A DNA stretch of 63,421 nucleotides, filler included, from 4 parts of 4 records of this genome joined end to end with filler, not necessarily neighbours in it; one strand, 5' to 3'. Counted from the whole stretch's first letter, positions 38,194 to 59,074 are shown. The notes: generated from the sequence alone by a model not told the origin. Made by a program: numbers and translations.

Positions 38194-38336
38194 ATGCATT
38201 TCCATGTGCCAAAGACGTCATTTGAAGGGGTCGAGACGAAGAAGAAAGTTTTGGAAACTTCAAAAAACTTGAATGGTGGACGGATGTCGGTTAAAATAAA
38301 GTCTTTTGTAAAAAATCAAGGAGATTACCTGAATTC

Positions 38337-39404: not shown

Positions 39405-39512
39405 TAGGGGGGCAGTTTTCAGGGTGCAGGATGAAGGACTGCTCTTTTTTTTCTGACAACTGCACCCTAATAATAAACACTAAAAAGCCATTAAGGAGAA
39501 AGTCGAAGAATT

Positions 39513-41240
39513 ATGCGATATTCCAGCTATTTTATTCCCACGCAGAAGGAAGTGCCGGCCGATGCCGAGATTATCAGCCACCGGTTGATGGTCCGGGCCG
39601 GCATGATTCGAAAGCTGACTTCGGGCATTTATACGTACCTTCCCGTGGGTCTTAAGTCCATACGGAAGGTGGAAAATATTGTCCGGGAGGAGATGAACCG
39701 GGCAGGCGCCATTGAGGTCCTCATGCCCGCCGTGCAGCCGGCGGAATTGTGGCGGGAGAGCGGCCGGTGGGAGTACTATGGCCGTGAACTGCTGCGGTTC
39801 AAGGACCGTCATGACCGGGAGGCCTGCATGGGGCCCACCCACGAAGAGGTGATCACGGACCTGGTGCGGAAAGAGATTCACTCCTACAAACAGATGCCTG
39901 TTAATCTCTACCAGATCCAGACCAAGTTCAGGGATGAGATCCGCCCCCGTTTCGGGATTATGCGCGGGCGCGAATTCATCATGAAAGACGCCTACAGCTT
40001 TGATGTGGATGAGGCCGGGGCCAACAGCAGCTACGAGGCCATGTACGGGGCTTATGAAAGAATTTTTAAGAGATGCGGTCTGAAATTCAGGGCTGTTGAA
40101 GCCGACTCCGGTACCATTGGGGGAAGCTATTCCCACGAATTCATGGTCCTGGCCGAGTCCGGTGAGGACCAGATCGTCAACTGCACCCAATGCGATTATG
40201 CGGCCAATCTTGAACGGGCGGAGGTGAAAGAAGAAGATGTGTCTTCGCCGGATAAAAATGGTTTTGAGGCCCTGGGGAGGGTGGACACGCCGGATCAGCG
40301 GACCATTGACGAGGTGGCCCAATTTCTGAAGATTACTTCCCGGCAACTGGTGAAAACCCTTGTTTATGTGGTTGATGAAGAACCGGTGGCCGTGTTGATT
40401 CGAGGTGATCATGAATTGAATGATGCCAAGCTTAAAAATGCCCTGGACGCGCAAGCCGTTGAAATGGCCTCCGAGCGGCTCGTTGAAGAAGCGACCGGGG
40501 CCCCATTGGGTTTTGCGGGTCCCGTGGGTCTCAACATCAAAGTGGTGGCCGATAATGCCATCAAGGCAATGAAAAATTTTGTGGTGGGGGGTAACGAAAA
40601 AGACCTTCACTTTATGAATGTGAATCTGGAAAGGGATTTCAAACCGAGCCTTTTCGGCGATTTGCGTACCATTGCGCCGGGGGATGCGTGTCCCCGTTGC
40701 GGCGGCGAAATCGCCTTTGGCCGGGGCATTGAGGTGGGGCATGTGTTCAAACTGGGCGTCAAATACAGTGAGGCCATGAAAGCCGTTTTCTTAAATGAAC
40801 AGGGAAAAGAGATGCCCATGATCATGGGGTGCTACGGCATCGGTATCGGCCGGAGTGTGGCGGCCGCCATCGAGCAGAACCACGACAAGGACGGTATTGT
40901 TTTTCCGATTCCGGTGGCCCCCTTTGAGGTGACCATCCTGCCGTTGCAGATGCATAACGAAGCCGTGGTGGAAGCGGCGTCAAAAATTTACGGGGATCTT
41001 CTGAATATGAATATCGATGTCCTCCTGGATGACCGGGATGAACGGGCCGGCGTCAAATTCAAGGATGCCGACCTGATCGGGATTCCGGTGCGCATCACGT
41101 TAGGTTCCCGGGGGCTCAAAAACGGTGAGGTGGAGGTCAAGCTTCGGTCGGAACCGGAGGGTTTCACGGTACCGCTGGAGGGGGCCGCAGCCGCCATTTC
41201 GGACACGGTGAAGGGCCTCTATGATTCGCTTAAAATCTGA
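39513..41240 (+). CDS. proS: Proline--tRNA ligase (bacterial type with editing domain)
   Basis: [46 protein letters not shown]. Confidence 0.97.
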
Positions 41241-41480
41241 AACCCTAAGATCCGCTTATAATGCGGGTTTCCAAGTTTTCGGGTTAATCGATTTCACTGG
41301 TTTTTATAGGTTTTAATTGCAAAAAAGGTAATTGTTACCTTAAGCAAAAACCCGAATGGAAACGGAAGCCCACCAGAACCTGAATGCGGCCATCCACGCC
41401 GTATGGATGGAAGCGGGCCTTGACCTTATGCCGGTTATGCGGGAGAATCCTGAAGACTAGGCAAAAAAGAGGGAGGCAAG

Positions 41481-41663
41481 ATGAAGAAATTAGTTGAAAC
41501 AATGGGAGTGGACCCCTTAGAACTACTTTTTGACCCGATAATGGGACCGGACAATAAAATTCTTGAGGATATTGAATCCTATAGAAATGAGTTGGAGTCC
41601 TGTATGGGCGTTCCAGATGCTTTACTAGGCAGGCGATCAGTGGTGGCCAGAGGGTCCCATTAG
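41481..41663 (+). CDS. Small hypothetical protein
   Basis: 60-aa ORF with a strong GGGAGG RBS, convergent on the phage operon terminator. Confidence 0.45.
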   Translation: MKKLVETMGVDPLELLFDPIMGPDNKILEDIESYRNELESCMGVPDALLGRRSVVARGSH

Positions 41664-41761
41664 TCACATCTATTTAAAACACTCTTAGGCCTGCAATATT
41701 GGCATAAAATAGATTTAAAACAAGCCTAAAACCTGTTTTTGGTGGCCAAAGGGCACCATAC

Positions 41762-41798
41762 AAAAAAAACACCCAGGCCGATAAAGGTCTGAGTGTTT
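41762..41798 (-). terminator. Intrinsic terminator of the phage late operon
   Basis: Minus-strand stem AAACACUCAGACC/GGCCUGGGUGUUU followed by a U-run. Confidence 0.75.
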
Positions 41799-41819
41799 AA
41801 AATCAACTAAAATCAATTC

Positions 41820-42065
41820 CTAATCTGTAATTTCTTCTCCCCGCTCCTCCGGCGGGGGAACGCCTACCGGATAAACCGGAGGGGGCTCAGAAATCGGCTT
41901 CCCCCGGATCATCGCAAAGACATCATACAGCAATGTTGTAATCTGATCATCCCACGCGCATTTTTTTGTCATCTTTGCGACAATCTTCAAGGACCCAAGT
42001 GCCAGCGTGAGCGTTAAGATATTCCCTTTGGCAAAGTCAAATAGAAAAGTGTCCAGATTGATCAT
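41820..42065 (-). CDS. Small phage membrane protein (holin/antiholin candidate)
   Basis: Hydrophobic helix; K.T...WDD motif seen in small phage holin-like proteins; lysis cassette position. Confidence 0.55.
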   Translation of the reverse strand: MINLDTFLFDFAKGNILTLTLALGSLKIVAKMTKKCAWDDQITTLLYDVFAMIRGKPISEPPPVYPVGVPPPEERGEEITD

Positions 42066-42325
42066 GCCACGGCCTTTTTATCTTTGAAGATGAATGTACA
42101 CGCCAGATCAATAAAAATACTGATCGGCCCCTTGATCTTTTCCCAGATTTCGGATTTACCTTCCGTGACACCGGTTACCGCGTCCACCAGGCTTTCAACC
42201 GCGGACAATACCATCTCCTTTTTTCTTGCCCCGGAATCTTCCACCCCGTCAAATGCCTCTTCCGCGATTTTCATCAACTTGGAAATCAACGGAATCACTG
42301 CCATCAAAATCGTAATCCACTGCAT
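42062..42325 (-). CDS. Holin-like phage protein
   Basis: N-terminal hydrophobic helix, AEE.F...SGARKKE.V motif, basic C-terminus. Confidence 0.55.
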   Translation of the reverse strand: MQWITILMAVIPLISKLMKIAEEAFDGVEDSGARKKEMVLSAVESLVDAVTGVTEGKSEIWEKIKGPISIFIDLACTFIFKDKKAVA

Positions 42326-42326
42326 T

Positions 42327-42569
42327 TTAAATCTCCTTTCTGGTTAATGGGTTGTAGTGTTTTTCGCAATATGTCACCGACCTGGCGCCATCTGCCGGGA
42401 TGCAATCGCATCCCTCATATATCCAAACCATTTCCCCTTTCTTCCGGGGATCACGGCCTTTAAACCAATCCTCTATGCGGTTTAGCGGGATCAAGGCCTC
42501 AAGACGGAAATGCCCTTTTCTTCTGTCTTCAGCATCTCGCAATCTTCGGATATCATCCTGGAACATCAT
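42327..42569 (-). CDS. Phage hypothetical protein
   Basis: Likely start at ATGA overlap with the endolysin stop; CxC...C..H cluster. Confidence 0.5.
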   Translation of the reverse strand: MMFQDDIRRLRDAEDRRKGHFRLEALIPLNRIEDWFKGRDPRKKGEMVWIYEGCDCIPADGARSVTYCEKHYNPLTRKEI

Positions 42570-43063
42570 GATGCCCTCACTTGTGAAAGTTTCTCTAATT
42601 CCATGTGGAAGAAATGACATTGAGTCTCAAGTGCTGAAATCCTCGATTCTATTTCAGGTGTTCCTGTTGCTGCAGCTGTTGTCTTAGATTCCCCCTCAAA
42701 AAACCGACGATATTTTTCCACCTTGTCAATATAAAAATGTCGATCATTTGGATCACAGTAATGCGCCGTTGCATCCTCCATACTATCCCACCGTTTCAAA
42801 AGCAGCCGTAAGAAAAGGATCCCGCATGCGATATCGACCAGGTCATCATCAACTTGCTCCATCGAATACAGCAGGTCTTTCATGGCAATACCGGACATCT
42901 GGAACACCCCACGGCAACCTGTTGGCGATGTCTGATGCAGACCCAAGGAGGATTCAACCAAAGCTACCGCCGCCGCCCAAGCCGGATCAATTCCGAATAC
43001 CGCGGCCATTCGGTAGATTTTATCTTTCGTTTCAGTCTGTTTTTTTGTGAGTTTCACGCTCAT
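42566..43063 (-). CDS. Lytic transglycosylase (SLT-like) endolysin
   Basis: AVALVESS (catalytic Glu) and GCRGVFQ motifs, ...AHY; AGGAG RBS. Confidence 0.8.
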   Translation of the reverse strand: MSVKLTKKQTETKDKIYRMAAVFGIDPAWAAAVALVESSLGLHQTSPTGCRGVFQMSGIAMKDLLYSMEQVDDDLVDIACGILFLRLLLKRWDSMEDATAHYCDPNDRHFYIDKVEKYRRFFEGESKTTAAATGTPEIESRISALETQCHFFHMELEKLSQVRAS

Positions 43064-43093
43064 CTCCTATAATTCTTTTTCTAACGACCTGCT

Positions 43094-43462
43094 TCAAACC
43101 TTGCCATCTTCATTGCTCCGTAGCTTGAGATATCCTTCGATCCGACCGATAGATTTTGCAATTTTTATCAATTCGGAATGGGTGTTTTCCCTGTCCTCTT
43201 TCACCTCTTTCTTAATTCCAGAAACGTATTTCACGATTTCTGCATTATTTTCCGCCTGGAGTTTGATACATGCTGTGCGTTCCTCTCTACAATCGGCTTC
43301 AGTTAAATAATTCTTCTTTAGAGCATCACCATGTTCTTTGATTGACTGGGTGTGGTCTTCCAAGGTTTTATCCTTTCTGCCAATGCGGAGGAACACGGTT
43401 ACCACGCCGATGCAGGCTAAAATTGATGCAGGCGCTTGCAATATCGATAGGGTGGCCTCCAT
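43094..43462 (-). CDS. Phage membrane protein, single TM + coiled coil (holin-like)
   Basis: ASILACIGVVTVFL TM, then a coiled coil ending IGRIEG; directly upstream of the endolysin. Confidence 0.6.
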   Translation of the reverse strand: MEATLSILQAPASILACIGVVTVFLRIGRKDKTLEDHTQSIKEHGDALKKNYLTEADCREERTACIKLQAENNAEIVKYVSGIKKEVKEDRENTHSELIKIAKSIGRIEGYLKLRSNEDGKV

Positions 43463-43474
43463 GTTTCCCTCCCA

Positions 43475-44497
43475 TTAATCAATCAAAATCCCACGGCCGG
43501 CGGCCGCGCTACCGTATTCCGGTTTCGCGGGCTCCTGGTATGAATTTTCCGGGGGAACAACCTCCATTTTACGACGATGGTTTCCAGGAAGGGGTAACCC
43601 GTCCAGGTCCACCCGAGACGCGGACTCAAAAAACTGCGTCAACACCTGGAAATCTTCCTCATTTGACATTTCAATGATTGCATCCAGGACGTTCTCAGGC
43701 ATTGCAATTCGTGTGTTTTTTGCGGATTCAACGATGATGTTCCGGCGGTTTTCTTCGATCTCCTGGATGGCTGCCAGTTTCCCCTGGGCGTGCTCCAGAT
43801 CCGCCCGGGCCTGTTCAGCATCTTCCCGAAGGGCGTCCTCATAAATGGCCGCGGCTTCCAGTTTCTCCTGAAGATCCACGTTTTGTAGCTGAGTAGACGC
43901 CAGCCAGCTATCCAGATATTTTTCGGCCGTGAGCTCATCCACTCCTGATTGACAAATATTTTCAAGGATGACATCCCGCGTGTTTTCGTCGGCCGATTCC
44001 AGCAGGAACCCCCGGTTTTCAGAAAAACCCGGATTCAGCACGTAATCGAACCCATAAAATGAACTCGTTTTTGTTTTACCGTAGGCTCCACCATCCGATC
44101 CACCCATAGCCCATGAAAAACCGCCGATTTTCGACTTGTGGAGACCTGTTACAATCTGGCCAGGCTTATTGTTTTCCAAAATTTCTTGGTGGTGTTCCAC
44201 GTTCCCATCTTCGTCAACATTAAAGAAGGTGGTCACATTGCTGGGAACATTTTCCAGGATGACCGATTGCCCCCCGGAAAGCTTCACGGTTTCCACTTCG
44301 GAAAGGTTCAGCTTCCCCGCCAACTGCCGGCGGCCATGGCCAAAATACCCATAGGCCTCACGCAATTTGATGCGTTCACGGGTCTCAGGGGCAACGCAAA
44401 CATTCCGTGCCGATTCAAGAACATAATTGCGATGGTGCCCGGTGTATTTCCGTCCTTCCCGAAAAAGATTGAAATTACATTTGATCACCTGTCCCAT
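43475..44497 (-). CDS. Prohead/head-processing protease, phage P1 Pro-like
   Basis: GYFGHGRRQL.GKL, ENVP, H.QEIL...PG.IV, GGFSWA.GG and F.G.DYV..P match my recollection of P1 Pro; start MGQVI after GAGGA. Confidence 0.85.
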   Translation of the reverse strand: MGQVIKCNFNLFREGRKYTGHHRNYVLESARNVCVAPETRERIKLREAYGYFGHGRRQLAGKLNLSEVETVKLSGGQSVILENVPSNVTTFFNVDEDGNVEHHQEILENNKPGQIVTGLHKSKIGGFSWAMGGSDGGAYGKTKTSSFYGFDYVLNPGFSENRGFLLESADENTRDVILENICQSGVDELTAEKYLDSWLASTQLQNVDLQEKLEAAAIYEDALREDAEQARADLEHAQGKLAAIQEIEENRRNIIVESAKNTRIAMPENVLDAIIEMSNEEDFQVLTQFFESASRVDLDGLPLPGNHRRKMEVVPPENSYQEPAKPEYGSAAAGRGILID

Positions 44498-46070
44498 TTT
44501 TGCTTTCCTCATTCTGCGGTTCCAGTTTTCTGAAAACCATTTTGAATTTTTCTTCATCCATTTTGAGTAGATCGGTATAGACCCAATTGTTCATTGCATT
44601 CGGATCAAAACCCTTCATCTCGGGGTCAAGGGTTTGGATCAATTGACCCACCAGCATTGCGAAATTAACCCGTGCTTCCCTGTTTTCCGCCTCTTCACGT
44701 TCCATTGCAGTCGAAACGGAATTGAACATGATTCTCCATGGCTTTTGGCCCGACGGAAAAACTTTCCCGTATTTGTAAGCCACATGGATATCGAAAAGCC
44801 GGTCAAGGCCGGTCAAGATCGCCCTGCGTAACATTGCGGCTTTTATGGCCGCCAGGATTGAAATCCGGAAAAACCCACCGTCTCCGAGTCCGCCGGCCAA
44901 CATTTCGCCGAACCCCAACAATGCCGGATCCACGCCAACCGCTGAACCGAGGCGTTTTATGTGAAACTCAACATCCGAAAGGGCTTCGATGTTCGGATTG
45001 CCCTCCACGGTTGATATCTCCAACCTGCCTTTACCATCACCCCAAATCGGAATAAGCCGGTTAATGGCAGTCTGGATAAAACCGCGTCGGAAAGAATCCG
45101 CGGCCTTGCGTTTTTCGGTTTTCTGTAATTGCTTGGACACGGTATTGAGGTACAAAGCCGCTTTCTGAGGTGTTAATTTTCCCGTGTTGACGCCCACAAG
45201 ACGCTCCAGGCGGGCCGCATTCTTCCGGCTCATATTCAGGCTCTGGATTGCGTCCAGGAGATCAAGCCATGGGTGGAATGCGGCCTCTATGAGGCTTTGC
45301 CCGTAATGCTGGGATTCTACCAAACCCTCATTTTCATAATCATCGGCCGCGATATCAAAGGGACGTTCTTCATACCGCACGGGCTCAATTGATGCGTCCG
45401 TAGGCCAATGGGGAATCTTGAATGCGATAAACTTCCACGGTTCCATTAACTGGATCCCCGCAGAGTGAGCACCCTGATATGCTGACGTAAAGCCGACCAA
45501 TTGGCCAGCCCGCTCATACATCATATTGAACCGCGGATGCGTATAAAAATCTGAGCGAAGAAGTTTTACACCTGTTTTCTGGGCGCCATAGACCCGTGTG
45601 AACCAGCATCCATACTTTGCTGCATTGTATGCCCACGAATGGCAATCCTGATTGATCTTCTCCTTGAAAGTATCTCTGAGATCGATCGCAATGGGGTTAT
45701 CTTCATCGGTTGTACTCTCGATTGATACGATTTCGCCTGTGTGCGGGTCCGCGCTAAGAGCATGGGAAATGTGCATTTTAATGGCGCTGTCAATTGTCGG
45801 ATCTTTCGCCATGGCATCCAAAACAGCGTATTTTGCAATCCGGTTTTTCGGGAAGGCCCCCAGCGAGATGGCATCATCATCACCCGTAACGGACGCCGCT
45901 TCCCCGACTGCCTCGGTCTGATTTGGCAAAAGCCAATCGGCGCCTTCACCGGTTGTCAACGGCATATTGTCAACCGGGGTTGTTTCCTCTTCAGATTTGC
46001 GAAACCCCGGATAAAGACGGCGCCAGTGCCACCAAGGTTCATCCTTTTTAGACTTCACTTTTTTTGTCAT
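44475..46070 (-). CDS. Portal protein, phage P1 Prt-like
   Basis: MAKDPTI.SA..MH..HALS, YG.SL.E.A..PW, LGSA.G.D..LLGF...L.GGLGDGGF.R.SI.AA; upstream of the protease. Confidence 0.85.
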   Translation of the reverse strand: MTKKVKSKKDEPWWHWRRLYPGFRKSEEETTPVDNMPLTTGEGADWLLPNQTEAVGEAASVTGDDDAISLGAFPKNRIAKYAVLDAMAKDPTIDSAIKMHISHALSADPHTGEIVSIESTTDEDNPIAIDLRDTFKEKINQDCHSWAYNAAKYGCWFTRVYGAQKTGVKLLRSDFYTHPRFNMMYERAGQLVGFTSAYQGAHSAGIQLMEPWKFIAFKIPHWPTDASIEPVRYEERPFDIAADDYENEGLVESQHYGQSLIEAAFHPWLDLLDAIQSLNMSRKNAARLERLVGVNTGKLTPQKAALYLNTVSKQLQKTEKRKAADSFRRGFIQTAINRLIPIWGDGKGRLEISTVEGNPNIEALSDVEFHIKRLGSAVGVDPALLGFGEMLAGGLGDGGFFRISILAAIKAAMLRRAILTGLDRLFDIHVAYKYGKVFPSGQKPWRIMFNSVSTAMEREEAENREARVNFAMLVGQLIQTLDPEMKGFDPNAMNNWVYTDLLKMDEEKFKMVFRKLEPQNEESKNGTGDQM

Positions 46071-46093
46071 TCTCAGGGGTTCCCTAAAGATTT

Positions 46094-46678
46094 CTACACG
46101 ATTTCGCCGACCACCAGACCACGGTCAATCATTGATTGCCAAAGTATTTCTTTTAAATTCTGGAAGAAACTTTTGTCCGGGTCCGGGCTTTGCATCGCAA
46201 GTTGTGAAAATTCCTTAATTCCGGGTGCCATGTGCCGATAAAGAACTGAAATGGTTACATCGTTTTCCACCATCGGCCCCAGGTCTTCCCCGGTTTCAGA
46301 ATCCGTTTTCCTCATGATCGTGACAACTTTCCCCTCAATCGAAAAATGAGTTCCTTCGGCCAGAAAATCCCCGCCAACCGACAAAATCGGGGGTTCAGTC
46401 GGGGTGTGATTCAACGTGATTCGCCCTTCATCGACATTATAATCTTCGTTGGTCAGTTCTTCAGTGTCGGGCTGGTCTCTGATCGTAATTGTTTCCTGCG
46501 ATACCTGCGTGAACACGCCATTTTCATAGGTGCCGTGGACCAGTTGAATCGACAAGGATTTACCGAACACGTCTACCGAAAAGCCCTTGATGTCGGAGTG
46601 CTGTGCTGTTTTTGCCTCTTCAATTACCGTTTCTGTTCTTACGAGTGCCATTTTCTTCCTCTCCTTTATCTCTACCAC
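46094..46678 (-). CDS. Phage hypothetical protein (fibre-associated candidate)
   Basis: Beta-rich ITL..TP...L.EG.HFSI.G..VT insert; located in the fibre module. Confidence 0.65.
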   Translation of the reverse strand: MVEIKERKKMALVRTETVIEEAKTAQHSDIKGFSVDVFGKSLSIQLVHGTYENGVFTQVSQETITIRDQPDTEELTNEDYNVDEGRITLNHTPTEPPILSVGGDFLAEGTHFSIEGKVVTIMRKTDSETGEDLGPMVENDVTISVLYRHMAPGIKEFSQLAMQSPDPDKSFFQNLKEILWQSMIDRGLVVGEIV

Positions 46679-47297
46679 CTGATTCCTATGCCGATTTTAT
46701 ATGTCCACGCTGACCATCGTTCAAGCTCGCCATGATACATCTGATCAAACGTCATTCGTTTAACCGATCCCATGCCCCACAACCATTCCCATATCCGAAA
46801 TTGACCATTGGCAACGGCGAATTGGACCCTGTTTGGGGACGAATTCTCTTTAAAAAAATAAAAGAAATTAATGTCAAAATTCTCGGTTTGCCAACCGCCA
46901 CCGCCTCCCCAATTGTCGCCATGCTTTTTCCAAAAATAGTCATTCTCAAAAATACTCTTATAGCCAGCCAGATTGTACGCCCCCGCTAAATATAATCCGC
47001 GCCATACATACCCACGCAACTGTCCGGATACGCCCCAAACATAACCAAAAGTGGCTGTTTTCTTTTTCTGCCAGGCCGTACATCCAGTTAATTTCATCTC
47101 TAGAAATCGCCATTTTGCTTGGCCTTCGAGGTGTACTCCAACACCAGGATCATATCCGGCGCCACTGGCGAAATTACCGGTAATGTAACCCCGACGTGCC
47201 AATCAATTTCATCCGTCCATCCTGCCCATGCTGTTGTCGTCAGAAGCAGCGAGCAAACCGAAATAAAGATAAAGCGTATTAGATAGTTAATCTTCAT
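46672..47297 (-). pseudogene. Frameshifted outer-membrane beta-barrel protein (about 208 aa if repaired)
   Basis: The signal-peptide ORF (47297, ...TAWA) and the barrel ORF ending YKIGIGIRW join if one G is added to the G4 run (plus-strand CCCC 47189-47192). Confidence 0.75.
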
Positions 47298-47317
47298 GTG
47301 ATTTATTTTCACTCCTT

Positions 47318-49981
47318 TTAATCAGTGAGCGAGATGTAATCCCATCCCCTGGTTGCACCATTACAAATGTACAACCTATTGTTTGTCGTATCGATACTCT
47401 GTCGTCCGCGTTCATCATCAGAATCACAATCTGCTGCTGGCGGAGCGCCAGCGTTATTATCCTGGAATTGTGCATATTTGCCATCCGGGACATGAAGTGT
47501 TGATTCCGGCAACGGAGTACCGATACCGACGTTGCCGTTTGAGTTAATACTAAAATCTTCAAGTGAACCAGAGCCCCAACCCATATGAAACCCTGTAGAA
47601 TTTAGATTCAGAACCATATCATCTATTGCCGAGCCTTGCTTGAAAGTTATTCTTGATCTTTCAGCTGAATTGGTAGTTTCGACAAGCAGACCTGTATCAT
47701 TATCGTCACCCGATGTTTGCATAACATGCAGCTTCGCATCCGGCCCCGTCGTACCAATGCCAACGTTTCCGCCATAGTCCGCTAATGCCAGATTGTAGGC
47801 CCCTGTTCCACTCCGGCCAGCGTTTATTTTTCCGACATTATCGGTAGTATCCAACTGAAACCACATTGTTTTATTAGTGTCAGTTTGCCCTTTAATTAAA
47901 AATTGACCTACTCCTAACGATGCAGAACTGACATCATCTTGCACATACAAACGTCCATGAGTAAGTTGTAAATTTCCAGCAAAAATATCTAATTTTTCTT
48001 GCGGACTTGTCGTCCCGATGCCTATATATCCGTTATAATTGATATGAAAAGGCGTTGTCGATGTACGGCCATCATAAATCTGAAAGTTGTCACCCACCGC
48101 TTTGATTGAAAAATCGGCAGTTGTGGGAGCTAGATCCTGCAATCGGATAGTGGGATTTTCTCCGACAATATGGAAATGTGCTGTCGGGCTCGGAGTCCCC
48201 ACTCCAACGTGGCCGTCTGTTTTTATGACCATTGCGCTATCAGATCGAGGGTCAGCTAATAAAGGGTTGGCAATTCCAGTTGTAAATCCTATATTTCCTT
48301 GTGTATTAAATCCGATATATGGATTTGCAGCATTTCCAAGTGAGGAAATTGTCAAATCAGGTTCATCTGTACTTGTGCGTTCAAATTCTACAAGATTACC
48401 GTAACCATCTCCGGTCCCGGCAACATGAAGTTGTACGTCCGGCTCCGTCCCAATGCCGACGCACCCATCATGCTTAGCAGTAATCACAGGAGTTGGACTG
48501 TTTCCGTCCGTTCCATCATTGACCTTGAACTGTACTTTCCCTTTTTGATCATCTCCGGTTCCATCGTGGGATACCGTTATTTTCGCAAGTGTAGTGGTCT
48601 CTCCTCCGGATTGTTTACCCTCAAAGACGACCGAACTTTCACGTCCACCATCAATGTCTTCAGGTGTTTGATTTCTAAGGGTTTTAATTTGTGGGGTATT
48701 TATCAGTTTTGCGCCAGAAACGATTCCATTCAGTCCGTTGCCGGACTGATCAAACCAAGTAGTTGTAGATGCATTTTCGGGGGTGAGATCTAAAACGCAG
48801 CCGATTTGAGTGACTTCAAGAGTTGCAATATCCACAGTGGATGCTGTATTATTCACTATCCACAACCTCTCTTGATTTTTTCCAATTGTATACTCAACAG
48901 TTCCAAACCCAGACATAATTACAGTCGAGTCGGATGCTGCCCTGAGAAATATAGATCCGGCAGATACAGTTCCATTCATGGTAATTCTATAGGTTTTTCC
49001 TACTTTAAGTGCGGGGGTTGAGGTAACATAAACACCGTCATTTGCTATCCCGCTTGTAGTAAATGTGTTTGCATCCGATATTACTGCACCGCCATACGCC
49101 GTCCACCCGCTTGTAAAATCCCAACCACTAAATACATCCGCCTGACTAGCCCCCTGATATTGATCAGGCACTTCACCACCACTGCTCAGTGCTTTTACTT
49201 CGTCGGCTGACAAAGCGAGATTAAAAAGCCTAAAATCTCGCATCATTGTATTAATATAACTGCCTGATACTCCCGGAATCAATAAGTCTGCTGTATTAGT
49301 CAATGAAGATGTGAACATAGCAATACTTTCAGTTGTAATAATTGCCTTACCGTCAACATAAAATTGACCTTTAGTGGCATCTCTATCAGACGTAAAGGCT
49401 AAAATATGCCAAACATCATCTTTTATAACTCCATAACCGGTGTCATAATCAGCAACTTCTACACCTCCAATTTTTGCATAAAACTGTAGATTGTCATGTC
49501 CACCTACTTCATTTACATACCAATGGTCGTTTGCAGATTGGTATTTTCCGAAATGCCCATTTGCCAGAGAATCGATAGGTTTTATTGTCCATATAAAACT
49601 AAAATCCGAAATGCCTAAATTAAAAGCTGCATTATCAGGCACAGTAATCACATCGTTAGAACCGTCAAACCAATACCCTGGCCCCCTGCTCGCAAGGTCC
49701 GTGATATTCTGCTGTCCCGTGGTATAATTACCATCATAATTCACATCACCGGTGCGGGTCCCTCCGGCGAAGGTCGGACTGTCCGTAGTCCGCACATCCT
49801 GATCCATACCGAAAAGTTCGTTTGCTCCGTGGCCGGTGTCGAGGGTGTTGGTAAAGACCTCCCCTGCGTTCAATCTCCCAGTTATTTCCAAGTCACCGCG
49901 GATTTTTTCAGTTTCAGCAAAAGCGAATCCGAAGAAAGCCAACATGATTGCGAAAGCAGCACAAAGTATTCTATTTTTCAT
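47318..49981 (-). CDS. Fibre/adhesin-like protein with Sec signal peptide, LamG-like domain and GxVGIGTxxP repeats
   Basis: MKNRILCAAFAIMLAFFGFAFA; FDGSND...WH......YVDG...FRLFN.ALSA.EV (LamG); five GxVG[IV]GT-type repeats. Confidence 0.8.
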   Translation of the reverse strand: MKNRILCAAFAIMLAFFGFAFAETEKIRGDLEITGRLNAGEVFTNTLDTGHGANELFGMDQDVRTTDSPTFAGGTRTGDVNYDGNYTTGQQNITDLASRGPGYWFDGSNDVITVPDNAAFNLGISDFSFIWTIKPIDSLANGHFGKYQSANDHWYVNEVGGHDNLQFYAKIGGVEVADYDTGYGVIKDDVWHILAFTSDRDATKGQFYVDGKAIITTESIAMFTSSLTNTADLLIPGVSGSYINTMMRDFRLFNLALSADEVKALSSGGEVPDQYQGASQADVFSGWDFTSGWTAYGGAVISDANTFTTSGIANDGVYVTSTPALKVGKTYRITMNGTVSAGSIFLRAASDSTVIMSGFGTVEYTIGKNQERLWIVNNTASTVDIATLEVTQIGCVLDLTPENASTTTWFDQSGNGLNGIVSGAKLINTPQIKTLRNQTPEDIDGGRESSVVFEGKQSGGETTTLAKITVSHDGTGDDQKGKVQFKVNDGTDGNSPTPVITAKHDGCVGIGTEPDVQLHVAGTGDGYGNLVEFERTSTDEPDLTISSLGNAANPYIGFNTQGNIGFTTGIANPLLADPRSDSAMVIKTDGHVGVGTPSPTAHFHIVGENPTIRLQDLAPTTADFSIKAVGDNFQIYDGRTSTTPFHINYNGYIGIGTTSPQEKLDIFAGNLQLTHGRLYVQDDVSSASLGVGQFLIKGQTDTNKTMWFQLDTTDNVGKINAGRSGTGAYNLALADYGGNVGIGTTGPDAKLHVMQTSGDDNDTGLLVETTNSAERSRITFKQGSAIDDMVLNLNSTGFHMGWGSGSLEDFSINSNGNVGIGTPLPESTLHVPDGKYAQFQDNNAGAPPAADCDSDDERGRQSIDTTNNRLYICNGATRGWDYISLTD

Positions 49982-49995
49982 CCTTCACTATCCCC

Positions 49996-50928
49996 CTATC
50001 CGATCATTTCGCGTGTAAGATCGATGGCCCACCCATCGCTACCCGCTGTACATTTTAATTGCACGGTGTTCCCGTCCTTTTCTACGGAAAACTCGATACC
50101 ATCCGTAGACCCTATGTCCGGTCCGGATTTATCCGGGAAGGGTGCAACATTGCCATCGGCCTCCCGATCCCAACATGCCTGCATCTTCCCCGTTCTCATG
50201 TTTGTTCCATCGCCATTGTCAACGACATATCGCCACACGGCGCCCTTCGCATTGGCATCCGGTATTGAATCGACAACCGTTTCGCCCGTATCGACGGATT
50301 GAGTTGGCACCGCAATCACCCTGGACAGGCCCCCGTCAGGAAAATCGATGGACTCGACGGTTACGTTTCGGAATGTCGGGTCACTGTTGGGTGACAATGT
50401 TTGACCTTGAGCGACAACCATGGCGTATTGAGCCGCGGTAAGGTGATATCGCTCACCGCTAATACCACCCTGAAAGCAAGACAGGTTTGCATGGTCTTGA
50501 ATCCAGGTCACAATTTTGATCCATCGCTCACCATTCCATCGAACATGGTCACCAGCTGCCCATGACGCGATACCATCCAGGGGATGGGAACCAGGAACCG
50601 ATACCCTCCAATACCACCCGGTTTCGGGTGATCCGTGCGGGTCGGCGCCTGCACTGGCATCCCAAACACCTTTGTAATTTTCATCCTCAAAGTAGCTCGG
50701 AGCCAGGTAAAGCAGGTCATTTGTGGGGATGCCTTCCGCAACCCCTACTTCGTCGATCGTCAAATAAGGGTGTTCGAGCCGAAGGTATTGGATGTTTTCC
50801 TGGGCGTCTTCATTGGGGATCTGTGCTTCTAGCTCCACCGCATTACCTGGGATGTAGATATAGAAACCTGTCCCCCTGAAAACGACGGGTAGAGAATTAT
50901 GGTTTGTGATCGTAATTTGGCTTATCAT
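49996..50928 (-). CDS. Phage tail-fibre/virion-associated protein
   Basis: YKG.WDAS...GWYW.VSV.G...W..GD...WNG..W.K module and H.NL...QGG...E.YHLT motif, both common in phage fibre proteins. Confidence 0.7.
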   Translation of the reverse strand: MISQITITNHNSLPVVFRGTGFYIYIPGNAVELEAQIPNEDAQENIQYLRLEHPYLTIDEVGVAEGIPTNDLLYLAPSYFEDENYKGVWDASAGADPHGSPETGWYWRVSVPGSHPLDGIASWAAGDHVRWNGERWIKIVTWIQDHANLSCFQGGISGERYHLTAAQYAMVVAQGQTLSPNSDPTFRNVTVESIDFPDGGLSRVIAVPTQSVDTGETVVDSIPDANAKGAVWRYVVDNGDGTNMRTGKMQACWDREADGNVAPFPDKSGPDIGSTDGIEFSVEKDGNTVQLKCTAGSDGWAIDLTREMIG

Positions 50929-50948
50929 CGTGATAACCCCTACATGGT

Positions 50949-51368
50949 TTAAGCGTTAGCGAATACGGCTTTTGCTTCCATTTCCTCATCCCCTGAAGCA
51001 TATTCAAAAGGCTCACCATCGGCACCGATAAGGGAATGGAATGGGTCAAAGATCATCTGCCCGGGTGCAAAGCGCATTTCCTCATACCACCACGCACAAA
51101 GCAGATCGTAAACCTGTTCACCACATTCCAGGGATTCAATCCATTCCCGGTCAAGGTGATCCCCGAATTCTGTATAACCGTGATCAATCAATGCCTTTTT
51201 CACGATCCACCAAAAGGGGCCATACCCACGGTATCTCAGTGGGGTTTTCCGCAAGATTCCGGCAATGGAAGAAAGGATTTTTTTGAACCATTCCTCTTCC
51301 GTCTGGCCCTGCATGGCTTCCGCATATAACGGTTTCAATTCGGCTTTCGTCGGTTTCTGGATTTTCAT
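50949..51368 (-). CDS. Ulx-like protein (DarB packaging helper in phage P1)
   Basis: KP.K..L......G.TE.E...L.K.P..YR.YGP.W..KK.L...GY..FG...DR matches my recollection of P1 Ulx; directly after darB as in P1. Confidence 0.75.
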   Translation of the reverse strand: MKIQKPTKAELKPLYAEAMQGQTEEEWFKKILSSIAGILRKTPLRYRGYGPFWWIVKKALIDHGYTEFGDHLDREWIESLECGEQVYDLLCAWWYEEMRFAPGQMIFDPFHSLIGADGEPFEYASGDEEMEAKAVFANA

Positions 51369-51374
51369 AACCCC

Positions 51375-54300
51375 TTAATCCTCCATGAGTTCATAAACTT
51401 CTCGTAAGTCCGTTTTGATCGGAACATGCCACCATGCGCCGTGGAAGTTATCGTCTGCATTTTTGAAAAAACTGGCCTTATATCTGGATTTCATGAAACG
51501 ACTGGCTTCCCGCAGGCGGCCGTTGTACCCCGCTTCATCCTGAAAGAACCACTTTTTGAAAGGGTTAATCGGTGTTCCTTTGCGGCCACGAAAGCCAGGT
51601 ATCACCATGTTGGTCAAATTCGTTTTGACCGTGATCCCCAGATTTTCAAAGGCCTGCTTCAGGTCGGCCGGCACTTCCGTGTAATCGGGGTGCTTCCGGA
51701 TTTCTTCCTGTTCTTTTTGTTTTTTTTCTGCTTTTAAGATGCTGATTTCTTGGGCTATCTCTTGTTGTTTCGCAATAACATGTGAATGCACAATCAGATT
51801 CACATCACTGACATTATCAACCTCACCGAGTCTTTCCCTTGTTGCAGTACGAATTTCTCGCTCTTTGGTGTCCAAAAGGAAGAGTTGGTTCTGTAAATCG
51901 TTCGCTGAGAAGTATTTAGTCTCAAAATCCGCATAAACAGCAGCCAAACTTTCCCTGATCTCCTTCTCAGTGGCGGTCTTGCCGTATTCCATGGCGATTT
52001 CCGTAAAGTTGCTTCCGAAAAGTTCAATCATGATCCCGGCAATCGCATATCCTCGATTTTCCCTTTCGAATTTCAAAAACAATTCACAAATGTTTTTCTT
52101 GAAATCGGCATTTTCCGGCTCGGGATAAACCATGTCGGATTTCGGGCCGTCATATTTATTGATCGTTGAAAGGACAAACTCATTGCCGGATCTGAAAACG
52201 AAATCGCCATATTCGTAGAAATTGATATCGTTCATATAATCCAGGAAGGTATCTTTTCCGATAGCCCTTTTAATCAGGGCTTTGTAGTCGCCTATTTGTT
52301 CATTAAGGATTTTCTTCAGTTGAATTTCTTCAGTTGAATAAGAGACTTTCGTCATTCGGTCGAAAGGCCAATTGTTGATTTTGATGCCGCTCAAGTAATT
52401 CCCCTCAGCGTCTTTGATGAGATCATCATTATTGTCCTTGAGAAAGTCGCTAGAAATATGGAAATGCCCGGTAACCGTTTCGTAATTCAGGGCCTTGTGC
52501 TCGCTGACAACATCAGTGACCTTGATCAATGCAACCGGGGGGGGGCCTTCGGCATGGTCGGCAACCTCGTAATAATCACCGGCCGCCACCACGTCCCCCT
52601 GCAGGGAGACCAGGACGTTTTCTGGGTGATCAATGTATTTTTCATCAAAAGCCAGGGTTCCCTTTTTGGCCCTTTGTTTCAGGATGCCCGAAACCTGCTT
52701 TGCTTTGGCTTCCAGTTCCATCCGGGACTTTTCATAAATCTGGTCAAGTTGCGCTAATCGGTTTTTGGCATTTTCGAGTTGCCATTCTTTCTTTGTCTGT
52801 TTGGTTTTCAGATCCGCCTTTTTGGGGTTGTCGGTTTCGTTTTCAATTCGAACCGTGTAATTGTCGAAAGTTTTCTGGAGCTTGGCGACCTTGGCAGTTA
52901 AAGCCCCACGTTCCTCTTCTTTCCGGGTCTCCAGGGTTTTCAAAAGGTTCTGAGCATTTGCCAGTTGTTGCAGGTTGTTCGCTGCAATCAGGTTATCCCG
53001 GGCCTGTCTACTGGCCTGTTCTGCTGCTAACCGTTCCATCCGGCGCCGGCGGGCCTCTTCCGGGTCCGATTCAAGCATGTCCAGGTAATCATCGGCGTTT
53101 TCCGCGTTTTGGTTGGCGGCCGAAGTCTCGGAACCTGTAAAAAGGTCATGCATCCAGTTGGATTTTCTTTTCAGAAGATCCAGGCGGTATTCATCAAAAG
53201 AGCCTTTTCCCAGATAATAATAGATGCTGATATGCTTCGCTTTGTTCCCTTGCCGAAGTCCACGGCCGTTTCGTTGCTGGATGCTGGCAGGGGTCCAAGG
53301 GAGGGTTAGATGATGAATTGCAGTTGTGCCTTTCTGAAGATTGACACCCACTTCAGCCTTTTTATTGGCAATGACAATCTTCATTTTTCCGGAATTGTAT
53401 TTATCGCTGATCTTCTGCATTTTATTGCCGCTGGCGGTGTCAGCATTGATAATCCCAATAACATCCTTCCAGATCGGCACTTCATGGGTGATCAACCGTT
53501 TCAACTTCTCATGCTGGCTTTTTTCTTCCGTGAAGATCAGTTGTTTGCCCTTGGACTCAAAATGTTTTTTCAATCGTTCAATCAGTTTGGCATATTTCGG
53601 TGTGATGGGATGCCCCACGTCTTCAGACTCTATCCCCACTTCCGGGAATTTCGAAACGACCCTTTCTTCATCGTCTTCAGGTACAACCAAGATGCAGGTC
53701 TCACCTTCAACCCGGACATCGGCGTCCTTGAGTTCCAATCTTGTTACGATGGTATCGACCTTATCCTTGTCCTGGGCGGAGAAATGGAAGGTCATGGTAT
53801 GGTTGTAAAGGTCCATGTCGGTTGTCACACGGTCCATGTCCCGCATGACAGAAAACAAGCTTTCCCCGGATCCGCCCATAAACTTGGGCTTTGCTGCCTC
53901 TTTGGCACGTTCTCTCAGGCTTTCATAAATCTCTTGCTGCCCTGAAGACAGTTCAACCACGTCGTTGATTTCATCGTGCGGGGGGAGTTCGAAGGTCTCT
54001 TTCACATCATCAGCTTTCCGCATGATGACGTATTTATGGAAGAGGTTCCGTAATCCATCCAGGTTCTGAAATCCCGTAAGGCCCAGCATCGGCTTTATCT
54101 CGCCACTCACTTTAACCTTGTCAACTGGCTGGATATCTCCAAACACCCTGACAAAATCATCAACCGTGTGGATACCGTACTGTTCGAATTCTTCCGGCGG
54201 GCAACACAAGGAAAGGATATTGTAAATCTCAAATGGGCTGTTGGTTACCGGTGTAGCGGAAAGAAGATAAGAACCCCGGCCGCCGTTCATTGCCCGGAGG

Positions 54301-56022
54301 TTATGCATCTTCATGGCCATGTCCAGGGACCGCTTAGCGGAAGGCGCCGTAGGAAGGTAGGCGTAGCCCTGAGACTGCTCACCCGGTTCGTAGGAATTTT
54401 TGAAACAGTGGCCTTCATCCACGATCACATTCGTAAAACCCATGTCTTCAAAGTACGGCAATTCATCCTTTTTAATGGTCCCTTCGTCGCTATACTTTCC
54501 CTCAAGATTGTTTATATTTACATCATCCTGGTAGGATCGCCCTTTCACGCCTGATGTGTTGTTTACAATCTTATCGGCGTTTTTCTCTTTGATAAGGGCA
54601 TGTTCAACCATCTTATCCGTGAATTTACGCTTTGAAGATGGTCGCATTGGAATGGTTCCGAACTTTTCAAATGTCATTACCACCAAGGATTTATTACTGC
54701 CTGGAATCTCCCACATTTTTCCCCAAACATCTTCTTTGCTGTCCCTCTTGATCAGCTTATCCTGATACTCAACTTCGCCGGTATACTTATTCTTTTTCGG
54801 TTTTCCCTCTTCGTCTTTGACCATTTCCCGGATAATCTCACCGCTTTTATCCAGTTTCGGCTCGAACCCGACGAAAAGACAATCATTCATGTGTCCAATG
54901 AATTTTTTGGTTGATCGATACCAATTGGAGAGAACAGCATTCGGGACAACGATACATGTCTTTTTTGACCGGCCCATCTGTTTGTTGTAGGCGTACAGTC
55001 CAAGGGCGCTATACGTTTTACCCAAACCAACATCATCGGCCAGAATCCCGCGCCCCTCCTCGGAAAGGCGACGGATCCCCGAATTCTGATAGGTATGAGG
55101 TTTGACATGGGGAGAAACCCCTTCGAGGCCCAAGTCCGTTTCCTCATACTCGAAAGGAAGATACCCATTGAACGTCTGATTGTATTTCGCCTGGATCTTA
55201 TCCGCATCCGGGTGCTGCATCATCCAAACGTTGAATTGCTCGTTAAGGTCTTCCACGTTTTGCTGATATTCACGCTTGATGTCAGCCTTGGAAGATGTGA
55301 CGTTTTTCCCATTCAGGTATTTGCTAAACTGTTTATGCCATCCGGATGCCTCACCTACGCTGAAAGTCCCATTCGGGTTATCGTAATCGTCCGTGATAAA
55401 CTCGATATAAGGCTCCATTTCGCCGGTTGTGGGGTCTTCCCGTTCAACCTTTCGATCCGTCACGTAGCGGGCGGATCGATAACCATTCTCCTGAAGGAAA
55501 TCGACAATGTACTTTCGACCAAACCATTTCTGTTGCATCCCGAACGTGATATCTTCAATGGCCGTGATTTTCCGCTTGCTCATGATCAGATCAATTTGCG
55601 TCTGGTATTTTTCCTTGATCTTTTCGTCCGGTTCATCGGCCATGGCATCGGTCATTTCTTTCATCTTGTGATAGATGTCGCCGGCTGCAAATCGGCTCAT
55701 AGGCTGGATAAAACCTTGTGGTGTGATTGCTACATTGTCATCGTCGGCAATATCGGTCAGAGACCCTATTTCGCGTTTCCCTGCGTACAGTTTTTGAACA
55801 TCTTCAAGTTCAATATTGGCAATTCCCTCACGCAAAAAGAGGTGTTCAACGATGGATCGAATGTTCGTATCATCATATTGGGTCCGGTCAATATTTTTCC
55901 CGGAAGCCAGAAGATCAGAAAAATTCCCCTTTTCATCCACGGCATTGAAGAAATATCCGAATATTTTTGAACTTTCGCCACAAAGCACAAGGCCCTTGTT
56001 CTTTTTCGGGTGTCCATACCTT
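51375..56022 (-). CDS. darB: DarB-like SNF2-family helicase (defence-against-restriction), 5' truncated
   Basis: LADDVGLGKT, IVDEGH, LSATPVTNSP, EVGVNLQ, QRNGRG.RQGN; frame open to the contig edge; adjacent to the Ulx-like gene. Confidence 0.8.
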
Positions 56023-56122
56023 NNNNNNNNNNNNNNNNNNNNNNNNNNNNNNNNNNNNNNNNNNNNTTAATTAATTAANNNNNNNNNNNNNNNNNNNNNN
56101 NNNNNNNNNNNNNNNNNNNNNN
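56023..56122. other. Artificial contig linker
   Basis: Same N/TTAATTAATTAA/N spacer. Confidence 0.98.
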
Positions 56123-56149
56123 CGCAGCTGGATCGTCTAATGCGTTATA

Positions 56150-56202
56150 TTATATGGGCTTAGTAGGGACGGCCAATGGCCGTCCCTACTAAGCCCATAT
56201 AA
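56150..56202. repeat. Perfect 26-bp inverted repeat centred on a GTAG-type REP
   Basis: TTATATGGGCTTAGTAGGGACGGCCA-A-TGGCCGTCCCTACTAAGCCCATATAA. Confidence 0.9.
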
Positions 56203-56234
56203 AGCCGGAAAGCAAGCACTGCTTTCCGGCTTTA
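56200..56234 (-). terminator. Terminator hairpin after the AarF/UbiB gene
   Basis: TAAAGCCGGAAAGCA-5nt-TGCTTTCCGGCTTTA. Confidence 0.75.
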
Positions 56235-57839
56235 TTTATGCTTTTTATTAAAGATAATATCAGCGAGCAGCCAGGCGCCCAGAAAAAAAGACAGCGAATA
56301 TCCCAGAACACCGAGAAGCGGAATTCCCAGAAGCTTGGGCTGCATGTCCGTCATGCATAAAAGGCTTGAACCGATGAGTCCGGCCGCAATCAGAATGCAG
56401 ACGATCAGCCGGTTAACCATGTGGCTGATTTTATTGAAAGGCTCCTCAGATCCAACCATCTCGATATTCAGCTTATTTTGTCCCCGCGCGGCTTGGTGCA
56501 CCAGCTCCGTCATATTTGACGACAGCTCGGCTGCGCGGCTGCCAAGACTCATAAAAAGCCTGAGATTTTTAGTCAGCTCCCGGGTGAGATCAAGGTCATC
56601 AATCAGGGTGCCGCTGAGCGCCGAGCCGTAAATATCGGCGATGTTTGTCTCCGGGTCAATTTTACTGACAACACCCTCCAGCGTCACCATGCCGCGGCCA
56701 AGCATTGAGATACCCGCCGGCATCGACAGGCCGTTTGATTCGGCAATCAGCAGCAAATCCGCAAACATCTGCCCGATATTGAGGCTGCTCAGCTCTGCTG
56801 AGCCGTAGCGATTAAGCATCTCCTCAATGTCTTCCGTCAGCCGCGTATGGTTGATCGTCCCGGTGTGGCGGCTGATGCCGAGCACCGCCTGCTTGAGCGC
56901 ATAAATATCGTCGGACGCAATAGCCATGACGGCTTTTTTCATCATATGCCGGTCCTGCGCTGTAAGCGTGCCGATCATCCCGAGATCGAGCCAGATAATT
57001 TTACCGTCCTGTATCCGCAGGTTTCCGGGATGCGGGTCCGCGTGGAAATATCCGTCCTCCAGCACCTGCTTGGCGTAACAGGCCACGAGCTTATGCGCGA
57101 GGTCTTTCAAATCATACCCCGCGGCACTAAGCGCTTCGGTATCGTCAATCTGGATACCATCGATACGCTCCATGCACAGCACCTTCGGCGTCGTCAGCTC
57201 CCAGACAACCGTTGGGAATGACACGTACCGAAGGCTCTCGTTCAGCTCGGCAAACCGCCGTATGTGCTCGGCCTCCGTCATAAAGTCGAGTTCCTGCTTC
57301 GCCACCGTCCAAATCTCGTCCAGAACGCCGTTGAGGTCGATGACTTGTCCCGTACGGCTGAAAATTTTAATAACGACGGATGCCCGGTGCAAAAGCCTGA
57401 TATCGGTTTCCATGCGCTCGTATATATCGGGCCGCTGGACCTTAAGGACCACAGAACGGCCGTTTTTTAAAACGGCCGCATGCGCCTGCGCGATTGACGC
57501 GGAACCCAGCGGCTTTTCGTCAATCGTGTCAAAAAGCTCGCCGCACTCCTCGCCGTACTCACCCTCAAGCACCTTGACGACGTCAGCATGCGGCATTGGT
57601 CGCGCGCCGGTACGCAGGCGTGTGAGTTCCCTGCAGTAATCATCGGGAATCATATCCGGGCGCATCGATAAAAGCTGACCAAATTTGACAAAGGTCGGCC
57701 CGAGGTCTTCAAATATGGATCGGAGCTTTTCGGGCGACAGCCCGTGGATCAGGTTGTAGCGCCCGAAAATTCCGAGTATTTCTCTGAGTCTTTTCGCTGA
57801 TGATATCTCTTTAGCTTTCCGCTCCCTTGTCATCATCAT
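56232..57839 (-). CDS. AarF/UbiB/ABC1-family protein kinase-like protein
   Basis: LGPTFVKFGQ, LGSASIAQ, VLKVQRP, FHADPHPGN, LDLGM; two C-terminal TMs. Confidence 0.93.
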   Translation of the reverse strand: MMMTRERKAKEISSAKRLREILGIFGRYNLIHGLSPEKLRSIFEDLGPTFVKFGQLLSMRPDMIPDDYCRELTRLRTGARPMPHADVVKVLEGEYGEECGELFDTIDEKPLGSASIAQAHAAVLKNGRSVVLKVQRPDIYERMETDIRLLHRASVVIKIFSRTGQVIDLNGVLDEIWTVAKQELDFMTEAEHIRRFAELNESLRYVSFPTVVWELTTPKVLCMERIDGIQIDDTEALSAAGYDLKDLAHKLVACYAKQVLEDGYFHADPHPGNLRIQDGKIIWLDLGMIGTLTAQDRHMMKKAVMAIASDDIYALKQAVLGISRHTGTINHTRLTEDIEEMLNRYGSAELSSLNIGQMFADLLLIAESNGLSMPAGISMLGRGMVTLEGVVSKIDPETNIADIYGSALSGTLIDDLDLTRELTKNLRLFMSLGSRAAELSSNMTELVHQAARGQNKLNIEMVGSEEPFNKISHMVNRLIVCILIAAGLIGSSLLCMTDMQPKLLGIPLLGVLGYSLSFFLGAWLLADIIFNKKHK

Positions 57840-58242: not shown

Positions 58243-58307
58243 TTAATATTACTCCTTTTCGTTAGCGTTATAACGCCCGATCGTTTATATTGCCCATTGC
58301 GACACGG

Positions 58308-58901: not shown

Positions 58902-58984
58902 AGAGTCTCCCCGCTTGCCGTTTATTAAGCTGAATCCAACTAATTTAATGCCGGGTTCATCCCACTACCCCTCATGTTGATATC

Positions 58985-59029
58985 ACTATATCATAAGGTC
59001 ACATGACTGTCAATGGTTTGCACATGACT
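58985..59029 (-). promoter_or_regulatory. SigA promoter with flanking CACATGACT direct repeats
   Basis: TTGACA (59008-59013)-17nt-TATAGT (58985-58990) with TGn extension; repeats at 59000-59008 and 59021-59029. Confidence 0.75.
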
Positions 59030-59074
59030 TTTCACGATTTATAATGCCGAGCTTAGTATTATCCGCTTATGCGC

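Follow-up and report, generated by a model that had tools for sequence, protein, structure and literature searches.

A probable P1-type prophage joined to proS in a Desulfobacterales-like chromosome

Phage P1 forms a plasmid prophage in enterobacteria. In the parts of PMC9024508 that deal with the genes concerned here, Prt is the portal, Pro is a predicted prohead protease, Ulx aids the localization of DarB, and DarB inhibits EcoK and EcoB; the passages of PMC12707154 on this system describe six Dar proteins that are borne in the head and protect in cis. P1-like integrative prophages have already been published (PMC10879196): Pfeifer and Rocha 2024 describe 12 regions, integrated in enterobacterial chromosomes, with a relationship to the P1 group. 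According to their sections on these regions, the close P1-like ones keep P1-like replication and partition genes and have a recent phage-plasmid origin, with the means of integration unclear. Here, we describe phage DNA joined to the prolyl-tRNA synthetase gene proS in a stretch of 63,421 bases (hereafter the window, in which all coordinates are counted). It lies on a contig of 24,539 nt at 31484-56022. Positions 41235-56022 are most probably the integrase-distal end of a P1-type temperate myophage prophage, integrated at the overlap of proS and relA in a Desulfobacterales-like chromosome.

The window phage resembles the prophages of PMC10879196 in that P1-related genes are found in a chromosome. 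As far as those prophages are described there, it is unlike them in that its portal is only 32% identical to that of P1 and that its relatives carry tyrosine integrases and no par or rep genes. From P1 itself it differs in being chromosomal rather than a plasmid, and in having a Desulfobacterales-like rather than an enterobacterial host. In the literature searched (supplements were outside its scope), no description of a distant integrase-bearing P1-type lineage, or of a member from the Desulfobacterota, was found. A preceding sequence-only reading of the window had proposed a distant P1 relative, integrated in a Desulfobacterota-like host, a proposal that is supported by four homologues of P1 proteins, the affinity of ProS, the join itself and the existence of integrative relatives.

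Phage DNA at the proS/relA overlap

The plus-strand genes ispG and proS run without a gap into phage genes, all of which lie on the minus strand, from 41820 to the end of the contig. This continuity had been claimed from the window, and it was tested by aligning independently built contigs of the public run X1, the probable source, which contains the query in full, to 36100-56022. An unbranched X1 contig of 3399 nt spans 39983-43381 with 0 differences and bridges the join at even depth (38.5 on the host side, 35.8 in the bridge and 37.2 on the phage side). It includes the interval 41200-41900, for which a continuity check had been proposed, at the level of contigs rather than raw reads, and a chimera at the proS junction, raised at the outset as a possible flaw, is not borne out by this independent assembly. 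Among the X1 loose ends listed, none lies at 41234, and a random misjoin is disfavored at this position because it would require a word common to both sides and leave a branch behind. The X1 contig on the phage side is 24,532 nt long and matches 43352-56022; about 11.9 kb of it fall outside the stretch, and we infer that they extend past 56022.

In the five closest relatives of the host with sequence beyond proS (L002, L003, L004, L006 and L015; ProS 63-72% identical), relA/spoT begins inside proS, 13 nt short of its end. All five have this overlap uninterrupted, with conservation down to the nucleotide sequence, and it represents the unoccupied site. The window follows it to 41234 and then diverges, and the DNA alignment with L003 also stops at 41234. 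From there on, the phage DNA adds one codon and a stop to proS, whose frame stays intact. A 90%-identical contig of run X2 carries, after 41234, the same nine letters as the start of relA in the relatives. Runs X2 and X4 cover ispG and proS only, at 90-95% identity, and leave the phage part uncovered, which proves nothing about its absence. Because the gene overlap at which the phage DNA starts is conserved and otherwise unbroken, site-specific integration is favored over a random misjoin. We infer that the 18-nt stretch at 41217-41234, the candidate attachment core, is part of the attachment (att) core.

Prophages of the lambda/P4 type, which use tyrosine integrases, enter by site-specific recombination at a short conserved core, and the phage copy restores the end of the target gene. 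The window phage would follow this mechanism in its insertion at a conserved gene end, with the proS frame kept and one codon added. The targets of the lambda/P4 type are tRNA and tmRNA genes, whereas the target here is an overlap of two protein genes, and scans of the junction region found no tRNA, tmRNA or Rfam target. A sub-threshold small-RNA match (E 0.065) from the scans of the junction and of the relatives' ends was disregarded.

Between the break and the first phage gene lies a region that includes a plus-strand open reading frame (ORF) of 60 aa (41481-41663), preceded by a strong ribosome-binding site, and two direct copies of a 20-nt repeat (41641-41660 and 41740-41759). A DNA comparison of 41001-44600 with the closest phage relative ends at the end of pro and offers nothing comparable for the att arm. 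A 15-nt candidate att core was found in at least 120 IMG/VR stretches, none of which, among 120, encodes ProS, RelA, Prt, Pro, Ulx, DarB or either integrase; as they carry no ProS, RelA or phage-marker genes, we regard them as chance matches.

The closest matches of ProS are proteins of metagenome-assembled genomes of Desulfobacteraceae/Desulfobacterales (72, 72 and 67% identity), and by this affinity the host flank is that of a Desulfobacterales-like, sulfate-reducer-like bacterium. Further upstream, at 35105-36358, the gene of an ATPase with AAA_14 and DUF4143 lies between phosphofructokinase and acyl-CoA dehydrogenase genes and is absent from the matching stretch of the relative L004.

The right limit is a different matter. 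The window consists of four contigs separated by three identical 100-nt artificial spacers, whose central sequence TTAATTAATTAA is palindromic and places a stop codon in each of the six frames. Position 56022, given earlier as the end of the finding, is a contig end that cuts darB and no biological border of the phage; the limit is an artefact because a spacer of the concatenated contigs starts at 56023. Genes are also cut at other contig edges, as seen in an aminotransferase fragment at 25531-26038 and a polymerase IV fragment at the end of the window. Concatenated draft contigs can make contig ends pass for element borders.

P1-type genes and their uncultivated relatives

The P1 set comprised the 102 coding sequences of the annotated record NC_005856.1 (Punavirus P1). 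Four of the 102 proteins match the window, namely DarB, Ulx, Prt and Pro, at 30-36% amino-acid identity. The resemblance to these four had first been put forward without database searches, and it is upheld by PHROG profiles and by the direct comparison, on the strength of which the four are true P1 homologues. Prt is 32-33% identical to the Prt of P1 and D6 (E 1e-69 to 1e-73). The DarB-like protein, with the Pfam domains SNF2-rel_dom and Helicase_C, is 32% identical to P1 DarB over residues 507-1946. At least 1537 aa of it are visible, and the contig end appears to remove the 5' part of darB, about the first 500 codons.

The proposed P1-like neighborhood stood as to the genes, the same four being present, but not as to their arrangement. 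P1 has ulx-darB and prt-pro in divergent orientation, directly side by side, whereas all phage genes in the window are co-directional and four extra ones lie between ulx and prt. Two marks of the P1 group are found, adjacent Prt and Pro and the Dar proteins DarB and Ulx. A plasmid prophage with RepA and ParA/ParB is not, as the element is joined to chromosomal proS, and genus-level nucleotide similarity to P1 is lacking, as judged from protein identity of 28-36%. Cre, C1 and Lpa have no match in the window or in two near-complete relatives, G001 and G002; the remainder of this copy lies beyond the contig end.

The relatives are 12 IMG/VR loci with a portal 55-81% identical to that of the window; 10 kb were fetched around each, and G001 and G002 were fetched whole. 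Pro adjoins the portal in all 12 loci, and DarB, Ulx, Prt and Pro are co-directional within 10 kb in six of them. G001 (82,186 nt, 91% complete) matches 26 of the 102 P1 proteins and G002 (81,919 nt, a provirus, 90% complete) matches 25. The P1 genes in these two include PacB, Mat, gp26, gp25, gp6, gp5, the major capsid protein gp23, the sheath protein gp22, gp21, PmgG, BplB, PmgC, Tub, PmgB, PmgA, BplA, gp16, Hdf, DarA, DdrB, DarB, Ulx, Prt and Pro, and the shared genes lie largely in blocks colinear with P1. RepA, ParA, ParB, Cre, C1, RepL, Lpa, PacA and Lyz have no match in G001 or G002, and DdrA was not matched there either; in the window phage, DarA, Hdf and DdrB would be located past the end of the contig. 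Among the relatives of the window phage P1's Phd/Doc likewise has no homologue, and CI-type or S24-type repressors are found in place of C1.

The first genes of G001 encode a tyrosine integrase, in which the arm-binding, central and catalytic domains are all present, and an AlpA-like protein; the genome also carries genes for a CI-type repressor, a methylase, a helicase-loader-like protein and a single-strand-binding protein. A direct repeat of 139 nt occurs in it in two identical copies, at 1-139 and 81930-82068, beyond which the sequences diverge. Pro is separated from the right copy by 2.8 kb, and in the window 2.2 kb separate it from the break. For G002, the distance from Pro to the end of the record is 2.9 kb, and an excisionase-like HTH_17 gene lies at the opposite end. 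L082/L093, which comes closest to the window phage (portal 81% identical), has an integrase, together with an excisionase-like gene, 2 kb beyond Pro. From these layouts, the window is read as the integrase-distal end. Tyrosine integrases are found in three relatives (G001, G004 and L082/L093); of five relatives' records, two contain the integrase family and none contains ParB_N. The L082 integrase has no match in G001-G005, and neither it nor the excisionase-like gene, the reverse transcriptase and their neighbors in L082 match anything in the window. Integrases differ among the relatives, so their attachment sites presumably differ as well.

As a separate observation, the G001 repeat (L094 1-139, L098 1930-2068) terminates in a sequence with CCA that is reminiscent of a tRNA or tmRNA 3' end. 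ARAGORN and Rfam found no tRNA or tmRNA gene at this repeat or at the other relatives' ends scanned.

G001, G002 and L082/L093 are like the window in sequence (portal 58-81% and Pro 55-76% identical), in the order DarB-Ulx-(slot)-Prt-Pro-lysis and in having the lysis cassette at the end of the element. They are unlike it in the lysis cassettes themselves and in the cargo of the slot between ulx and prt. In the window, this slot holds a fiber-like protein of 887 aa with Laminin_G_3 and no reverse transcriptase. The N-terminal 30 or so residues of this protein recur in L093 ORFs, and it has a match to T4 gp36 (E 8e-5) that falls below the cut-off. The slot of the closest relative (L082 357-3221, the same as L093 6089-8953) holds instead a reverse transcriptase (phrog_1423, E 5e-118; RVT_1) beside a tail protein (phrog_5302), and looks like a diversity-generating retroelement aimed at the tail protein.

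The visible phage part, 41820-56022, has a coding density of 98%, all on one strand, and its ORFs are long and intact (Table 1). When the phage ORFs without annotation were scanned with PADLOC and NCBIfam, the only matches were generic SNF2-helicase ones, for DarB. A promoter and terminator scan gave no more sites than shuffled sequence.

The start of Pro is probably at 44497, as its relatives begin at the residue that matches codon 21 of the window ORF. A PDB sequence search with Pro gave no match, and a structure prediction from a six-sequence alignment (mean predicted local distance difference test (pLDDT) 49.7, predicted template modeling score 0.27) was too poor for a fold search. At residues 208-280 or so, this low-confidence model (pLDDT 72-86 there) gives one helix of about 70 residues after a conserved N-terminal domain, possibly a fused, scaffold-like tail of the protease. 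The databases name P1 Pro differently: RefSeq (NC_005856.1) and PHROGs (phrog_1801) call it a 'tail fiber protein', and the gene list of PMC9024508, in the part on Pro, has a predicted prohead protease. The label 'tail fiber protein' looks wrong.

Lysis genes had been noted after pro, and a weak transglycosylase and membrane proteins are indeed found there. What found no support is their kinship with P1: among the 102 P1 proteins compared, Lyz, LydD and LydE have no match in the window, and no homology was detected between the SLT-type lysin and P1 lyz. The Pfam score of the SLT-like protein, 19.6 bits against a cut-off of 21.3, is below the cut-off. All six of its PDB sequence matches are lytic transglycosylases, aligned over the Glu-Ser region (E 0.36-0.43), and a pairwise comparison with its G002 counterpart was not significant. 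With signals that are weak but consistent, it is a probable SLT-type endolysin. The 122-aa membrane protein, which has a charged helical tail, is a putative holin or spanin-like lysis protein. The three small ORFs at the end of the operon are putative holins or lysis accessory proteins; hydropathy places a hydrophobic helix at the N-terminus of the 87-aa protein, and the 81-aa ORF shares 41% identity over 54 aa with an ORF downstream of Pro in L089.

Table 1. Features of the window, with positions in the whole stretch (GC, guanine plus cytosine fraction)
Feature	Position	Strand	Evidence or remark
Contig	1-25430		GC 0.43; three Por_Secre_tail sorting-domain proteins and a DUF3822 protein, beside infB-nusA-rimP
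Contig	25531-31383		Truncated aminotransferase gene, S-layer-like protein, secretin, type II secretion protein C
Contig with the proS-phage join	31484-56022		GC 0.529 in the host part, 0.468 in the phage part
Contig	56123-63421		GC 0.54; ABC1-type kinase, MerR-family regulator, BlaR1/BlaI pair, polymerase IV fragment
Artificial spacers	25431-25530, 31384-31483, 56023-56122		N44 + TTAATTAATTAA + N44
ispG	38337-39404	plus	Pfam GcpE, E 2.9e-152; ispG-proS order also in relatives
proS, prolyl-tRNA synthetase	39513-41240	plus	Pfam tRNA-synt_2b, tRNA_edit, HGTP_anticodon
Last stretch common with relatives' proS/relA overlap	41217-41234		Break after 41234
Prophage-end region, no large gene	41235-41819		Supplies last codon and stop of proS
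Three small ORFs (81, 87, 97 aa), end of late operon	41820-42620	minus	No family matches
SLT-type lytic transglycosylase, endolysin candidate (165 aa)	42566-43063	minus	Pfam SLT E 7e-4; PHROG transglycosylase E 3e-5
122-aa membrane protein	43094-43462	minus	N-terminal transmembrane helix, hydropathy maximum 2.17 over residues 7-25; no family match
Pro, predicted prohead protease (360 aa)	43475-44557	minus	phrog_1801 E 4e-79; 30% identical to P1 Pro, E 1e-35
Prt, portal (531 aa)	44475-46070	minus	phrog_1497 E 8e-137; Pfam Portal_T4 E 4e-8
Two ORFs (194 and 176 aa) within the variable ulx-prt slot	46094-47202	minus	No Pfam, PHROGs, PADLOC or NCBIfam match
887-aa tail-fiber-like protein	47318-49981	minus	Pfam Laminin_G_3 E 1e-11; phrog_18345 tail fiber E 2e-20
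310-aa conserved protein, adjoins ulx	49996-50928	minus	59-69% identical to L093 ORFs in the same position; no family
Ulx-like Dar component	50949-51368	minus	phrog_1629 E 8e-34; 36% identical to P1 Ulx, E 4e-19
DarB-like SNF2 helicase	called 51375-55988, frame open to N run (56022)	minus	phrog_1685 E 0, from profile position 520

Two side observations concern the other contigs. Just before the first spacer, at 25370-25430, the last 50 or so bases resemble the 5' portion of a tRNA gene truncated at the contig edge, for which ARAGORN makes no tRNA call. In the last contig, 59140-62194 encodes a BlaR1-type M56 sensor peptidase (899 aa) and a BlaI/Penicillinase_R repressor, near the MerR-family and ABC1-kinase genes.

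Prophage, remnant or misassembly

On the reading we favor, a prophage of about 80 kb, probably intact, would have been inserted at the overlap of proS with the beginning of relA/spoT. The visible part would be one tightly packed late operon, composed of Dar proteins, a variable slot, the portal and protease, and a lysis cassette of a membrane protein, an SLT-type transglycosylase and small ORFs. DarB and Ulx would be capsid-borne anti-restriction proteins, like their P1 counterparts, which are packaged in the head and shield the injected DNA from type I restriction. The phage would have the virion and Dar module of P1 and not its way of lysogeny. Its relatives appear to use tyrosine integrases, with the attachment site just beyond the lysis cassette, and this copy would be complete, with an integrase of its own at the far end, next to relA.

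Several points weigh against such an integrated prophage. Since the contig ends, the visible phage part comes to 14.8 kb, without capsid, terminase or tail genes. The window contains no relA, no integrase and no att duplicate, and only one junction is visible. The junction region (41235-41819) and the lysis cassette are similar to those of no relative, and the phage-side att arm is not comparable. As X1 is the probable source run, the bridge is a second assembly and not second data, and contigs, as used for it, cannot reveal rare variants. The source bin seems mixed, with a Bacteroidota-like contig at 1-25430 and Desulfobacterales-like ones otherwise; the combination of Por_Secre_tail (type IX secretion) and DUF3822 in the former is one that we take to be typical of Bacteroidota. 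The portal was found in none of the 3 nearest genomes, none of 209 of the relatives' order and none of 401 sampled from the phylum (control 5/5); the last set is a sample of species-representative genomes, so that the result means 'not found' rather than 'absent'. Among species representatives of the phylum, such lysogens are thus rare.

Some of these points would also suit a decayed or truncated P1-type remnant beside proS, unable to excise or to form particles, for which 14.8 kb of phage DNA without integrase, capsid, terminase or tail genes, and a lysis cassette and junction region unlike the relatives', would be natural. Such a remnant is nevertheless unlikely. The right edge is a contig end and not a deletion, darB is open right up to the N run, the independent phage-side contig has about 11.9 kb beyond its matching part, and the visible ORFs are long and intact (1537+, 887, 531 and 360 aa) at 98% coding density. 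If instead the contig of a free phage or phage-plasmid had been misjoined, behind proS, to one from the host, the mixed bin from short reads, with its Bacteroidota-like contig beside Desulfobacterales-like ones, would be in keeping with it, as would the plasmid prophage of P1 itself, and the join was judged from contigs of the probable source run rather than from raw reads. We hold this to be quite improbable, as a second assembler's unbranched 3.4-kb contig crosses the join with 0 differences and a depth of 35.8-38.5 on both sides, and the break falls exactly inside the conserved proS/relA overlap with the proS frame intact. The relatives, moreover, are integrative and lack par and rep genes, and the distance from Pro to the element end agrees with those in G001 and G002.

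There is hardly any chance that the locus is a domesticated, phage-derived particle locus of the gene-transfer-agent or tailocin kind, although structural and lysis genes stand on the contig without visible replication or lysogeny genes. Dar genes, a portal and a prohead protease belong to a virion that packages DNA and infects, and the gene sets of the near-complete relatives are those of full phages, repressors, replication genes and integrases included. The GC content is below that of the host flank, and with the portal in 0 of 209 genomes of the relatives' order there is no conserved host locus. An integrated P1-type prophage thus remains our preferred account of the locus.

Distribution and implications for the P1 group

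Among 7999 candidates scored, the portal has 298 relatives at E <= 1e-20, and the best 120 of these are all at least 49% identical. Eight of the 120 lie on contigs of 123-826 kb, which are longer than any phage of this type, and one portal relative among the matches listed is named as coming from an uncultured Desulfovibrio. Integrated P1-type relatives are common in public data, and the window prophage is only moderately unusual.

A broader proposal joins these lines, and we regard it as speculative and rather doubtful as a whole: a deep lineage would pair the P1 virion and Dar module with integrase-based lysogeny, the plasmid lifestyle of P1 would be derived, and the attachment site would be the coupled overlap of proS and relA. 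If it were true, lysogeny would detach the gene of the stringent-response synthetase RelA from its upstream partner and could alter its expression. The proS/relA overlap itself is a possible new attachment site.

For the P1 group, the locus and its relatives mean that the P1-type head, tail and Dar module are not tied to plasmid lysogeny or to enterobacteria and also occur with ordinary integrases; in the present case the host is an anaerobic bacterium of Desulfobacterales-like affinity. The relatives provide outgroups for the question of how phage-plasmids originated.

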